Below, in pieces: positions 25,801-28,648 of a stretch of DNA of 64,000 bases. How positions within the stretch are numbered: position 1 is the first letter of the stretch; each line of letters begins with the position of its first letter. The stretch is from an uncultured Anaerolineales bacterium (GTDB lineage Bacteria; Chloroflexota; Anaerolineae; CG2-30-64-16), in assembly GCA_964551735.1 (NCBI GenBank), contig CAZKEF010000017.1:31007-95006 (forward strand), read 5' to 3'. The notes below the pieces were generated by a model. The model did no database searches, was not told where the DNA came from, and saw nothing but the letters and a program-made list of their open reading frames with translations. The position numbers and the translations under genes are program-made.

Positions 25801-26220
25801 ACGCCGAACAGTCAATGCTATGTTTCGTAACTGAACGTCCTGTCCTGCTAAATCTTGGATGGTAGTGATGAGTTCTGCGGGATCGACAGGACGATTCAGA
25901 TACCGATAGGCGCCACCACGCAGCGCGTGGGTTCCGGCCTCACGCTCCTGACCGGTAAATACCACTACCGGCTGATCGGGGATGTGAGCTCTGATCTTAT
26001 CGAGCACCTCCCATCCATTGAGCGGCGCACCAAGCACCCAGTCCAGGAGGATGGCAGTGTAAGGCTGTGAGCTGACACTCACCCGGTCAAGGGCCGTTTG
26101 CCCATCATGGCACATCTCAACGTCGAAATCAGCTATCTCGCGCAGATACACGGCGAGCGTTTCGGCAGACTCCTTATCGTCATCAACCAGCAGTACTCTA
26201 ATCTTGCTCATGATGCTCAT
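22894..26220 (-). CDS. REC domain followed by about six GAF domains, no recognisable output domain
   Basis: N-terminal REC (VLLVDDD...ILLDWVL...VVVFTGQ...); remainder is repeated GAF-like modules; no HisKA/HATPase or DNA-binding domain seen. Confidence 0.6.
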   Translation of the reverse strand: MSIMSKIRVLLVDDDKESAETLAVYLREIADFDVEMCHDGQTALDRVSVSSQPYTAILLDWVLGAPLNGWEVLDKIRAHIPDQPVVVFTGQEREAGTHALRGGAYRYLNRPVDPAELITTIQDLAGQDVQLRNIALTVRRLLDWDMCLVWRWDRKDRLFRLAAWHGKSHELDDADRRHTFTKEEPTLHRLLETGYPSYLADLNQEPPCEHCKVARHHKGITLLSAPLRYRGQLTGLLDTYKCQRHEFQDLDGIKRMLLSYVDQAAEAIHSVEMLRQNQALTEVSRLLAGPFNPSGVLDLILTRGLELVNADAGCIYVKDFETNELVLETTCGVAVDEASKRLKRGKTIIDEVSEIGRTKWVPDLHAFPTQETSFCVPLSNTALGSLMAVPLRREEQTIGVLIGGSYLPHAFTEGDMGLLQSFAQLASLAINRSKLMRHMQRISEPGQQDRSQLAVTVVEALYDLTGKGVSLWLLDRKGNEMTIAAARGLSDRYRQAGRIGLQEEAAATYALHERQPVNRADISDLNEYPPFKFREKLLEEGWRSALIIPVLGPQAQPLGSLHVYGRTKGRFSDTEVDFITGFANQVVNSLEQQRAFDLQVKFSQVISALATTTSLQVDDVLSKVVLAALDLTNAESGVVHAVDPSGEHIVNSYQYPENQAQAIPRMAEASYTRWIVQNKTRKVVGDAQTDPQVNPATRAMGIKSFVGIPLMLDNKRVVGVLYVNEHQVVREFTGSELAMLQALTDGAAVALEKARLYSEERALRRQAERLRRVSGAMTSARDLTEVAAEVLDGLKDVVEYRTATMQLVSSLDKPRMLIAHRGFPQPPTNKDLLQPIQKDRLMRRVVAQKEPYISSDTSTETDFGRTPSTQNVHSWICIPLYYGDALIGLITLDHDQKEFYTSALEGLLMQFGNQAAVAIHDARLTSRLERQIQAHEMLHKVGQSLLDAPNEDVVLSQVAEAVSQTLDCRHCSIFRLEGGRLVARVVEGIRAKSIRPGRSFRFGEGIAGWVAREGKSALVLDTSQDKRFDPTWTDDPPLSLVDVPIILNERVYGVVSAEADTPSAFDEADLKLLETIAAQTSQAIQVARFKAEQNALNELDKQLLTAEL

Positions 26221-28648
26221 CCTTCTCCTGTTTCGCGCAAGGCAGCTTCACCACGAAGGCAGTCCCGATGAACATCAGGCTTGCTGCCAGGCTCAGGCTC
26301 CCGCCCGTCATCTCGACCAGGTTCCGGCTAATATAAAGACCCAGACCGGCGCCATCGGGGCGTGTGGTGTATCCCATTTCGAATACCCGTTCGTGAAGTT
26401 GTCCGTGAATTCCGGGGCCACTGTCCATCACGGCAATTTCCAGGGGACGTCCTGTGAAACCCTCGATACGTCGTGTTTGAACTATGACCTGCCGAACACG
26501 CGCCAAATCAGCCTGTTCGCCCTGTTCTGCATGGAGTTGTCCAAAGAACTGCATCTTCAATTCGATCTGTTGGATGGAGTTAAGTATCAAATTGGTCAGT
26601 ATTTGCTCAAGTTGCGGCCGGATGGCCAATGCCTTTGGGAGTCCAGCGGAAAGATCTGTGGCAAACATGATTCCTGCAGCGCGCGCCCTGTGTTCCAATT
26701 GACGCAGCACGCCGGTAACCGCTTCATTGACATTCACCAGATCGAGCTCGTGTCGAGCCAGGCGTGTATAACCCTTCACCAAATCCGAAAGACTTCCTTG
26801 CTGTTGTGCAAGCCTATGAACTGAGTCTGCGATCTTTTGTCCCCGTGCCTGATCTGGAGCGGCCTGTGCCTTGTCGCAATATCCCTGTAAGAGCTTTGTC
26901 TCCCAGTTGAGGCCATCGAGCTTGTGGTTCAATTCATGCACCAGGTTCGCCAAGAGTTCACCTCGAGAACAGTGTTCCTGATAACCGCGCATGTGATCGA
27001 GGAGTATCGCGTTCTCAATTGTAGTTGCAAGAAGCCCTGCCCCCAATCGTGCCCGATCGACCTGTTCACGCCCCTCCCTGCTTTTTGTGGAGAAGCCCAG
27101 GATGCGTTCGTCAAAGAGAAAGAGGGCGTGTCGAGTCAGCCGTCCAGGAATCAGGAGCGGCAACCCAAAACAGGAGCGATAACGCAAGTCTGGAAACAGA
27201 TTGCGAAGGCGTGCTTCCTCATAACGAAGCGCCTCAGTGAACCGAAATTCCTGTTCTTCCTCGATCACATTACGTGCCGGACTGTGATATAGGGTGCCCA
27301 CTGCCCTTTCCGCTATCCCCGGAGGTACTGGCGGATCCGCGGCCAGAATCGAAACGATCTTGCTGGCTGTATCCAACTCCAACACCATCGCCTGGCTGAT
27401 CTGGATGGTCTCCCGTAATGTCATCAACGCGTCCAACAAACGCTCATGCAGCGACCGTTTCGCCAGGGATTTAAGGCCAACTCGTTCCAAGAACCCAGAT
27501 TGACTGCCACCAGGCGACGAGCGCGATGCTATGACTCTGGTCCAATAACCCGTACATAACCTGTGCACCCAATCAACGATTTCTTCGTCGGTCTTATCTA
27601 TCAAAGGATCCGTGGGCTTTTCGATCTCCGCAACAACAGGCAACTCAGACCCGTTGATGATGACCGGTGCTTCTGCTCTGTTGAGTTCCGGGTCGTGCGA
27701 TGGCGGGGCGAAATCCAAATCCAGCTTTTCGACGCGCATCCTGCTGACAAACAGCACTGGTAGACCAGGCCTGGCAGTACGCAGCCGAGTGGCCACAGCC
27801 GGTCCAAGCTCACCATCCAAATACACATCAACGATAGCTAATCCGTAGGAATGGCCCCCTCTAACTAGCTCTAGGGCCTGATCCCCGGAACTCAAACCAT
27901 CGACCTCAACGCCGAACTCTCTCTTCAGGGCCTCACAGATACGTTCTCGATCCTGCACATCATCATCCACCACCAAGAAACGATGAGGCCGTGGAATAGG
28001 AGGCAAAAACCGATACGTTTCGGTTAGCCCTTCTTGGTCAGATGAACCGTCCTGATGAGGCAAAGAGGTTGGCTGGGGTTCGGGAGTACGGAGCAAATCT
28101 GCCAGCGCGTGACTCTGCTCCTGAACGCTGGCGAGGCGCCTAAGCTCACCCCACAGGCTGAGGTCAATTTGCCTCAGCGTGGGACTCATCTTCGTTACGA
28201 GGCCGCGCACCCGGTCCCCGATCCAGAGCAGATCCTCCACCCCCAAATCGCGCAAGATGGGGAGATCATCTCGCCAAACTACCGCATCAATCCCCGGTTC
28301 CAACTGGACAAAAGCGCGATCATGTTGGACGTTTACCACCTCGCCTTCAACGCTTTGACCAATTCGATAGCGATACCTCACACCAACATCGTCCCAAGGG
28401 TCAGCGGCCTGGCGCAGGCTCAGAAACACCAACCCACGCTGCGGATCATCTTCCAAGACAATTGCATCGAATTCCGAGCCTACCTGGGGCATTGTTGGCA
28501 TAACGCCGATGCGCCGATCCCACGACAATTCTTTCCGCCGGATGAAACCGGCGCGATTGCTCTTGAGAATCTTGACCCAGACACCCGTGTCTCGGATTTG
28601 GGCAACAGCAACTCGCACGCGAGTTGATGGTAACATAAATGACGCCAT
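26198..28648 (-). CDS. hybrid sensor histidine kinase: two N-terminal S1-like RNA-binding domains + REC + GAF + HisKA + HATPase_c
   Basis: S1-like OB folds: VRVAVAQIRDTGVWVKILKSNRAGFIRRKELSW... and IGQSVEGEVVNVQHDRAFVQLEPGIDAVVWRDDL...IGDRVRGLVTKM; REC (FLVVDDDV...LAIVDVYL); H-box HELNHKL; ATP lid VMDSGPGI...GLGLYISRNLVEMTGGSL. Confidence 0.6.
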   Translation of the reverse strand: MASFMLPSTRVRVAVAQIRDTGVWVKILKSNRAGFIRRKELSWDRRIGVMPTMPQVGSEFDAIVLEDDPQRGLVFLSLRQAADPWDDVGVRYRYRIGQSVEGEVVNVQHDRAFVQLEPGIDAVVWRDDLPILRDLGVEDLLWIGDRVRGLVTKMSPTLRQIDLSLWGELRRLASVQEQSHALADLLRTPEPQPTSLPHQDGSSDQEGLTETYRFLPPIPRPHRFLVVDDDVQDRERICEALKREFGVEVDGLSSGDQALELVRGGHSYGLAIVDVYLDGELGPAVATRLRTARPGLPVLFVSRMRVEKLDLDFAPPSHDPELNRAEAPVIINGSELPVVAEIEKPTDPLIDKTDEEIVDWVHRLCTGYWTRVIASRSSPGGSQSGFLERVGLKSLAKRSLHERLLDALMTLRETIQISQAMVLELDTASKIVSILAADPPVPPGIAERAVGTLYHSPARNVIEEEQEFRFTEALRYEEARLRNLFPDLRYRSCFGLPLLIPGRLTRHALFLFDERILGFSTKSREGREQVDRARLGAGLLATTIENAILLDHMRGYQEHCSRGELLANLVHELNHKLDGLNWETKLLQGYCDKAQAAPDQARGQKIADSVHRLAQQQGSLSDLVKGYTRLARHELDLVNVNEAVTGVLRQLEHRARAAGIMFATDLSAGLPKALAIRPQLEQILTNLILNSIQQIELKMQFFGQLHAEQGEQADLARVRQVIVQTRRIEGFTGRPLEIAVMDSGPGIHGQLHERVFEMGYTTRPDGAGLGLYISRNLVEMTGGSLSLAASLMFIGTAFVVKLPCAKQEKDEHHEQD

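Follow-up and report, generated by a model that had tools for sequence, protein, structure and literature searches.

Small molecules, light, the state of the membrane and proteins are all established signals for histidine kinases, whereas direct sensing of RNA has, to our knowledge, not been demonstrated for any of them. Here we describe a gene (26198..28648, minus strand) in a 64,000-nucleotide stretch, hereafter the window, of contig CAZKEF010000017.1 from an uncultured Anaerolineales bacterium. Its product, which we call the S1-kinase, joins a tandem of two S1 domains, as found in the ribosomal protein bS1, to a soluble histidine kinase, and the gene opens a conserved cassette that recurs in other genomes. 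That RNA is the kinase input, through a tethered S1 pair and within a two-kinase phosphorelay, is a proposal to which we give about an even chance. No description of an S1-bearing histidine kinase, of the family or of the cassette was found in the searchable literature, and the family carries no more than an automatic name in any source. The kinase, with its unprecedented module of RNA-binding type, lies in a conserved, uncharacterised cassette whose effectors are interchangeable.

The N-terminal module is best compared with bS1, in which domain D3 contacts RNA through Y205, R252 and R254, and D4 through Y290, F293 and R341, on the face built by strands beta2, beta3 and beta5, both domains jointly forming a groove for at least 14 nt of single-stranded RNA (ssRNA) (PMC8287937). 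The S1-kinase shares with D3-D4(-D5) two consecutive S1 OB-folds with a short helical 'DPW' connector, and its family mostly keeps the aromatic and basic RNA-contact positions in the second domain (S1-2). It differs from bS1 in having two repeats only, without the ribosome-anchoring D1-D2, in a His to Arg replacement in the first domain (S1-1), and in being fused to a kinase.

Concerning the kinase part, the prototype of the Rec-controlled type is LvrB of Leptospira, where phosphorylation of the receiver domain (REC) frees the catalytic ATP-binding (CA) domains (PMC13269768). The S1-kinase, which Foldseek matches to LvrB (8vc9, E 1.6e-14), likewise carries its REC N-terminal to DHp-CA, is soluble and has no HPt, but it differs in the GAF domain placed between REC and DHp, in the S1 tandem and in its downstream partners. 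It does not belong to the LvrB family proper (NF047466, 41 bits vs a cut-off of 500).

At the operon level two kinds of system come close. Detocs is a defence system made of the DtcA kinase, the stand-alone REC 'buffer' DtcB and the REC-effector DtcC, for which a kinase driving a REC-effector has been experimentally established. The cassette also is an operon with a kinase, a stand-alone REC and RECs fused to interchangeable effectors, a resemblance of architecture only. Detocs has one kinase, a TPR sensor and mostly PNP effectors, whereas the cassette has two REC-GAF kinases, the S1 module, a layer of APH-like kinases, and CHAT, TIR, trypsin and wHTH modules; we regard the likeness as a functional analogy and not as membership. 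The second kind are the EAD/TCAD conflict systems (Kaur, Burroughs, Iyer, Aravind 2020, 2021), with which the cassette shares TCAD9 (10 loci), EAD8 (fused to trypsin in locus L030), CHAT (L014), TIR (L025), trypsin-like and STAND-like or AAA-wHTH parts, as well as its occurrence mainly in Chloroflexota lineages. The papers of Kaur et al. 2020/2021, which defined the EAD and TCAD domains and do not cover the cassette, report receivers that act independently of histidine kinases and list no kinases as effectors, whereas here two kinases form the core. No vWA-MoxR-VMAP or iSTAND ternary core was seen among the cassette genes, only an AAA/nSTAND1-like ATPase-wHTH in 8 loci.

A more distant parallel is offered by PKR and GCN2, the RNA-activated eIF2alpha kinases of eukaryotes, GCN2 having a HisRS-like domain. 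As in these, a putative nucleic-acid-binding module is flexibly tethered to a kinase, and the clade to which the window belongs adds a diverged aminoacyl-tRNA-synthetase paralog to the pathway. The kinase fold is however unrelated, a double-stranded-RNA-binding domain takes the place of S1 and there is no common ancestry, the parallel being an analogy only.

Domain architecture of the S1-kinase

A first-pass annotation of the window, made from the letters alone, placed two S1-like repeats within about residues 1-170, and both peptides that it quoted are found in the translation, at residues 11-43 and 96-125. The profile searches that it called for agree: Pfam S1 (PF00575) matches two stretches (54.4 bits, threshold 22, E 1.7e-14), in NCBIfam residues 8-165 cover two rpsA repeats in a row (E 1e-20), and phmmer against all PDB sequences puts bS1 at the top (E 1.7e-18), with the two units aligning to D3 and D4 of the E. 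coli protein. It had also named structure prediction as the way to tell S1 domains from other barrels, and an AlphaFold model of residues 1-175, with a predicted local distance difference test (pLDDT) of 89.5 and a predicted TM score (pTM) of 0.72, shows two five-stranded barrels of S1 OB type. Among the Foldseek matches of this model listed for the PDB, 50 out of 50 are S1-domain proteins; the top one is the nuclear magnetic resonance structure of bS1 D3-D4 (7a05, E 1e-12, TM 0.61), bS1 in 30S mRNA-delivery complexes (9guv) reaches a TM of 0.68 with a root-mean-square deviation of 3.3 Å over 156 columns, and eIF2alpha, Tex, YabR and NusA rank after bS1 in the same list.

The N-terminus is confirmed as a tandem S1/OB pair, nearest to the mRNA-binding D3-D4 of bS1. 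A non-OB barrel or a chance similarity is ruled out by Pfam, NCBIfam, the PDB search and two Foldseek searches, and the domain evidence for the S1-kinase taken together lies far beyond chance. The pair is not rpsA proper (TIGR00717, 73.8 bits vs a cut-off of 577), since it has two repeats only, which match the central and C-terminal repeats. A fusion artefact, a frameshift or a mis-called bS1 fragment is likewise ruled out by the end-to-end architecture seen in 30 aligned homologs and at least 150 clusters. As the similarity is to D3-D5 and not to D1-D2, free ssRNA is a likelier ligand than the ribosome-associated state that had been proposed beside it.

The domains expected behind the S1 pair, REC, GAF, HisKA/DHp and HATPase, were correctly listed, as seen from Pfam, family scans and models (see Table 1 for the boundaries). 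Pfam places Response_reg at residues 225-304 and HATPase_c at 678-804 (52.7 bits vs a cut-off of 26.4), NCBIfam aligns the C-terminus to AtoS/ZraS-type kinases, and Foldseek matches the model to the DHp-CA cores of ZraS and HK853. Between REC and DHp the window protein itself gives no Pfam match at E up to 1; GAF_2 is recognised in 12 of 30 family members and HisKA in 2 of 30, which suggests that the middle domain is probably a divergent GAF, and shows that the DHp has drifted beyond the reach of the HisKA profile. The full-length AlphaFold model (pLDDT 75) opens with two units of five beta strands each, at residues 10-77 and 99-164 (pLDDT 85-92). Residues 189-212 are disordered, and so is part of the REC that follows (306-343), inside which the window protein has a 28-residue insertion. 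An alpha/beta fold spans about 400-520, and the chain continues with a long hairpin of helices and ends in an alpha/beta ATPase domain. The hydropathy scan gives no transmembrane segment, and so the S1-kinase is cytoplasmic.

The product had been named a hybrid histidine kinase, of which the second half holds. With an H-box His on a hairpin and ATP-binding boxes it is, to judge from these motifs, a class I histidine kinase. A classical hybrid, in which a C-terminal REC relays to an HPt, is rejected: the REC (223-366) is N-terminal to the GAF and the DHp-CA core and neither the S1-kinase nor the cassette contains an HPt domain, hence the protein is of the Rec-controlled type.

Ahead of the gene, a hairpin followed by a T-run lies at 28719-28736 (minus strand), about 70 nt upstream of the S1-kinase start, within an intergenic region of 429 nt. 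Terminator-like sites in the region are no commoner than in shuffled sequence, and a promoter scan likewise does not rise above it.

Conservation of the catalytic and ligand-face residues

Conservation was derived from an alignment (A2) of 30 family members. The H-box His571 and Glu572 are present in 30/30, and N686 and N690 of the N box, D742, G744 and G746 of G1, and G766, G768 and G770 of G2 are invariant or nearly so. In the REC, Asp274 and Ser/Thr302 occur in all 30 and Asp229 in 29, and the canonical Lys in 21; at its alignment column this Lys is missing from the window subclade. Mean pairwise identity is highest for the CA domain (39%), followed by S1-2 (36%), S1-1 (34%), GAF (32%), REC (29%), DHp (24%) and the linker (10%), so that the S1 domains are second only to CA.

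The two S1 domains have kept different things. At the beta2/beta3 positions S1-2 shows Y/F in 19/30 and F/Y in 29/30, and in beta5 R/K159 in 28/30, positions that the phmmer alignment maps to Y290/F293/R340-R341 of bS1 D4. This domain is never lost in complete members, Pfam finds S1 in 30/30, and three members lack S1-1 and retain S1-2. Judged by these residues, S1-2 is very probably a functional nucleic-acid-binding OB-fold. S1-1 carries what its sequence presents as a family-specific surface, with the motif G[FIL][IV]RxRE[LI]SW, in which R37 is found in 28/30 and W43 in 27/30; at the aromatic positions the window protein has T21/W24, and across the family the first of these is variable and the second hydrophobic or aromatic.

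These figures bear on whether the pair matters at all. It could be neutral or vestigial, and the cassette a regulatory phosphorelay of the usual kind, responding to small molecules bound by its GAF domains, of which each cassette has 6-12; wHTH outputs in several loci, flanks that are mostly metabolic and the three members missing S1-1 would fit such a picture. Across at least 150 clusters, however, few segments are as well conserved as the S1 domains, which have invariant residues peculiar to the family, and S1-2 stays in every complete member, and we consider a vestigial pair very improbable.

Between the S1 pair and the REC every aligned member has an unconserved linker of 35-87 residues. 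A linker of this length that is predicted to be disordered, together with the intervening REC, makes a simple rigid allosteric sensor-domain model unlikely, and a tethered input or recruitment module fits better. The position of the linker also bears on a reversed direction of signalling, in which the S1 pair would be an output: phosphorylation of the REC, by its own or the partner kinase, would switch RNA binding, making the protein a kinase and a response regulator that acts post-transcriptionally on mRNAs. Response regulators with RNA-binding outputs exist (ANTAR class), the S1 pair adjoins a receiver whose acceptor Asp is intact, and two cassettes encode the pair on a polypeptide separate from the REC-kinase, as expected for a separable module. 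Nevertheless, response-regulator outputs normally sit C-terminal to the REC behind short structured linkers, whereas here the pair is N-terminal and separated by disordered, unconserved residues; moreover, the cassette already has dedicated REC-effector proteins, and the split forms would uncouple S1 from REC. We therefore hold an S1 output to be distinctly unlikely.

A conserved cassette and the proposed relay

A word-indexed search of 5.8 billion proteins returned another nine proteins, 27-90% identical, that combine S1, REC and HATPase. Among 185,579 species genomes (one genome per GTDB species) 29 loci were found, in about 25 species genomes, mostly of Chloroflexota (Anaerolineae, Anaerolineales, Caldilineaceae) and a few of Acidobacteriota, and a HMMER search of 1.84 billion representatives gave at least 150 clusters (50% identity) matching the family profile end to end, the 150th listed cluster still scoring 453 bits. 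Besides S1, Pfam recognises the REC in 30/30 members and HATPase_c in 28/30. This recurrence across genomes and clusters indicates that the architecture is real, old and moderately widespread. No viral relatives of the S1-kinase were found in IMG/VR. Two very long proteins from the HMMER search, P0319 (1986 aa) and P0331 (1421 aa), show 14 and 8 separate matches, respectively, to the S1 portion of the profile, and may be poly-S1 proteins.

Apparent S1-REC architectures without a kinase (L023, L024, L026) proved to be contig-end truncations, and a stand-alone S1-S1 protein as an independent family was also discarded, as the examined cases (L034, L035, L036) are parts of the same cassette. In L034 an insertion sequence (DDE transposase, 797-2119) is inserted exactly in the linker-coding region, between S1-S1 and the REC-kinase; in L035 S1-S1 is a separate open reading frame (ORF) with an 11 nt overlap with the REC-kinase; and in L036 it lies beside degraded kinase fragments. 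Every complete or placeable close relative of the S1 pair is fused to, or beside, the same kinase cassette, and the natural breaks inside the disordered linker mark the pair as a separable module.

The cassette emerged from clustering all ORFs around the 29 loci and the window. The S1-kinase is always its first gene. The second, directly after it in 18 loci, encodes a REC-GAFn-kinase of 1100-2100 aa (up to 2112 aa) and usually shares 4 nt with the end of the S1-kinase gene (4-23 nt in many loci, with 23 nt for the window). A third gene, in 10 loci, encodes a REC fused to TCAD9, an APH-like kinase, with the acceptor Asp intact in 10/10 and the HGDxxxxN catalytic loop in 8/10; its C-terminal module varies, being none, CHAT (L014), TIR (L025) or wHTH (L008, L029). 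The fourth gene, in 8 loci, is an AAA/STAND-like (nSTAND1-like) ATPase fused to a Trans_reg_C wHTH. Nothing in the surroundings of the gene is more informative than this conserved cassette, whose effectors can be exchanged; it was missed by the first-pass annotation, whose interpretation overall is partly supported.

A known defence system is rejected on the basis of PADLOC, which has no match for the core proteins: none of its models matches the S1-kinase, REC-GAF or REC proteins (E up to 1e-3) apart from an unrelated PDC-M60C, the presence of Detocs models in the version used being unverified, and defence-model matches are limited to generic protease and CHAT domains. The flanks of four long loci show no defence-island context, containing mostly metabolic genes and one NERD protein.

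In the mechanism that we propose, the S1 pair, derived from the mRNA-binding repeats of bS1 and tethered by a long linker to a soluble REC-GAF-DHp-CA kinase, would bind ssRNA, and this binding would relieve an intramolecular contact or concentrate the kinase on RNA, thereby biasing its kinase/phosphatase state. A tether that is long and disordered favours either of these over rigid helical transmission. The S1-kinase and the translationally coupled giant REC-GAFn-kinase would then form a two-kinase phosphorelay, a kinase-to-kinase relay being likely since both are of the Rec-controlled type. Phosphoryl flow would end on receivers fused to, or encoded beside, interchangeable effectors. In most lineages these are an APH-like kinase, alone or joined to CHAT, TIR or wHTH; the window instead has REC proteins together with a trypsin-like protease and a metzincin. 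Apart from the GAF domains, the S1 pair is the only candidate input of this scheme. The sequences and models establish which domains are present, that the catalytic residues are intact, that the S1 ligand face is conserved (most clearly in S1-2), that the linker is flexible and that gene order is kept while effectors vary; that RNA is bound, which way the phosphoryl groups travel and what sets the system off in the cell are inferred.

Several observations weigh against RNA as the input. In S1-1, Arg37 replaces the canonical S1 His (Arg in 28/30) and the first aromatic is often lost; the window S1-2 has Asp110 at the first aromatic position, F113 and R159 being retained; and the net charge of the tandem ranges from -10 to +7 across the family, hence there is no electrostatic signature. 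The absence of the Lys at its column and the disordered insertion suggest that the REC of the window subclade may be atypical. The disordered linker and the REC stand between S1 and the kinase core, so that coupling must be indirect, and in the LvrB paradigm the controlling input is the REC and not an extra domain (PMC13269768). Finally, no RNA gene or Rfam element (E up to 0.1) is present in the low-GC island in which the window cassette lies.

The pair could alternatively recognise proteins, either as a targeting module that tethers the kinase to the ribosome, the degradosome or another ribonucleoprotein, or as an integrated decoy of host bS1 for invader factors that normally hijack bS1, the kinase reporting the attack. 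A flexible tether is typical of recruitment modules, and S1 domains act as protein-docking surfaces in eIF2alpha-PKR and in bS1 within Qbeta replicase, both among the structural matches. S1-1 has also swapped part of the canonical RNA face for its own invariant R37/E40/W43 motif, and the TIR, CHAT and EAD8-trypsin effectors suggest a conflict role. The similarity to the mRNA-binding D3-D5 and not to the ribosome/replicase-binding D1-D2, the RNA-contact residues mostly kept in S1-2, the lack of viral copies in IMG/VR and sampled flanks without defence-island context argue in the other direction, making a targeting module or decoy unlikely in our estimation.

The window clade and the meaning of the family

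The window clade comprises the window, L030-33 (90% identity), L002 and L034. Here two genes, REC-GAF and GAF-kinase, take the place of the big second gene, in which they are fused in most other loci, with an AlaRS-like gene between them, and the operon tail holds one or more REC proteins, a trypsin-like protease and a metzincin (Table 1).

Table 1. Features of the S1-kinase gene and its neighbours in the window (positions in nucleotides of the window)
Feature	Position	Strand	Basis
S1-S1-REC-GAF-DHp-CA histidine kinase, 816 aa	26198..28648	-	ATG-start ORF; Pfam, NCBIfam, hydropathy, 30-member alignment
S1 domain 1 (residues 10-78)	28415..28621	-	five strands with pLDDT >85; aligns to bS1 D3
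S1 domain 2 (residues 95-165)	28154..28366	-	top Pfam S1 stretch 95-164; canonical S1 signature F113, R159 (beta5)
Flexible linker (residues 166-222)	27983..28153	-	pLDDT <50 at residues 189-212
Receiver domain REC (residues 223-366)	27551..27982	-	Pfam Response_reg; predicted phospho-acceptor Asp274
Probable divergent GAF (residues 398-522)	27083..27457	-	alpha/beta fold in model; GAF_2 recognised by Pfam in 12 of 30 homologs
DHp helical hairpin (residues 560-632), His571-Glu572	26753..26971	-	helices 565-594 and 600-631; Foldseek ZraS, HK853
Catalytic ATP-binding (CA) domain (residues 636-804), N/G1/G2 boxes	26237..26743	-	Pfam HATPase_c
Partner gene, REC + six GAF	22894..26220	-	Pfam; start overlaps S1-kinase stop by 23 nt
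AlaRS-like paralog, aminoacylation + tRNA-recognition fragment only, window-clade-specific	21445..22863	-	Pfam tRNA-synt_2c; PDB AlaRS E 2e-39
Second kinase, five GAF + DHp-CA	18155..21382	-	Pfam; cluster C1; H, N, G1, G2 boxes in sequence
REC-REC without output domain	17331..18152	-	two Pfam Response_reg stretches; acceptor Asp residues present
Trypsin-like serine protease, weak REC-like N-terminus	16122..17297	-	Trypsin_2 70.6 bits; catalytic motif intact
Metzincin (M10/astacin-like) peptidase, intact catalytic motif HEFGHALGLIHE	15309..16064	-	Pfam; motif in sequence; also in L030
278-aa protein with a single transmembrane segment, lipobox-like AWGC	29078-29914	-	transmembrane scan
TPR/SPFH-like membrane protein	29889-31235	-	upstream trio (29078..32711)
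SPFH/Band-7 protein, three transmembrane segments	31290-32711	-	Pfam Band_7; transmembrane scan

In the REC of the partner gene (22894-26220) an Arg replaces the conserved Lys (YLNRPVD). The N-terminus of the protease matches a REC profile at E 0.029 and a local profile at E 5e-8, and its first ~100 residues have an Asn at the phospho-acceptor position (LAVLNV), which gives them the look of a pseudo-receiver. The protease homolog in L030, the 90%-identical relative, is longer and combines EAD8 with Trypsin_2. At the corresponding place in L002 the tail gene (16391-17921) encodes a REC fused to a stretch that resembles nucleoside 2-deoxyribosyltransferase below the cut-off (24.1 vs 28.8 bits), and may represent another effector type. 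The trio of membrane protein genes upstream of the kinase operon is syntenic in L030, and SPFH genes flank the cassette in distant lineages as well (L009, L016, L017, L022, L028).

The paralog of alanyl-tRNA synthetase (AlaRS) is kept in four lineages, always downstream of the REC-GAF gene(s) and upstream of a GAF-rich or GAF-kinase gene. Its signature motifs are altered, in that the AGGK loop is missing, FHMGGAFHFGLT stands in place of FEMLGNFSFGDY and DETVIGVER in place of DTGMGLER, and it presents an invariant C205-x3-C209-x3-C213-x-C215 cluster. It may be a pseudo-synthetase sensor. A general link of the cassette to aminoacyl-tRNA synthetases was discarded, since the SerRS and ArgRS genes beside L035 and L036 do not recur and only the window-clade AlaRS-like paralog does.

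The locus forms an island of 17.5 kb (~15.3-32.9 kb) with 47-57% GC between flanks of 63-73% GC. It contains ten genes, all on the minus strand, and at either end its border falls between genes; signs of mobility, such as a tRNA, flanking repeats or an integrase, did not turn up. The flanking RpoD gene shares a 120,344-bp NCBI contig with the S1-kinase, its nearest named relatives being Anaerolineae and Chloroflexi metagenome-assembled genomes (MAGs), and the contig of the 90%-identical relative has 48-57% GC throughout. The simplest reading is that the island was acquired horizontally from a lower-GC Chloroflexota lineage, a chimeric MAG contig being less likely. Directly outside the island, 33072-37301 (minus strand) encodes a protein of 1409 aa that contains six Lamin-tail (LTD) domains; the gene for the housekeeping sigma-70 factor comes next.

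A wider reading, which we regard as rather unlikely, is that filamentous Chloroflexota use the cassette for immunity or programmed cell death, as a two-component system set off by RNA. Aberrant or foreign ssRNA would be detected by the S1 pair, or the pair would act as a bS1 decoy, and the two-kinase relay would license the TIR, caspase-like CHAT, trypsin/metzincin or APH-kinase effectors, with the AlaRS-like pseudo-synthetase as a tRNA-related input in the window clade, analogous to the HisRS-like domain of GCN2. If this were true, bacteria would have an equivalent of the PKR logic in which histidine kinases do the work.

The family provides a defined, testable case, with an S1 module of 175 residues whose fold is modelled confidently, a soluble kinase having all catalytic residues, and a compact cassette with readable outputs (protease, TIR, kinase, wHTH). 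If RNA does not gate the kinase, what the family marks out is nonetheless a multi-kinase cassette of Chloroflexota that is widespread and uncharacterised; if it does, nucleic-acid sensing would be added to two-component signalling, and phosphorelays would be tied to immunity effectors beyond Detocs.

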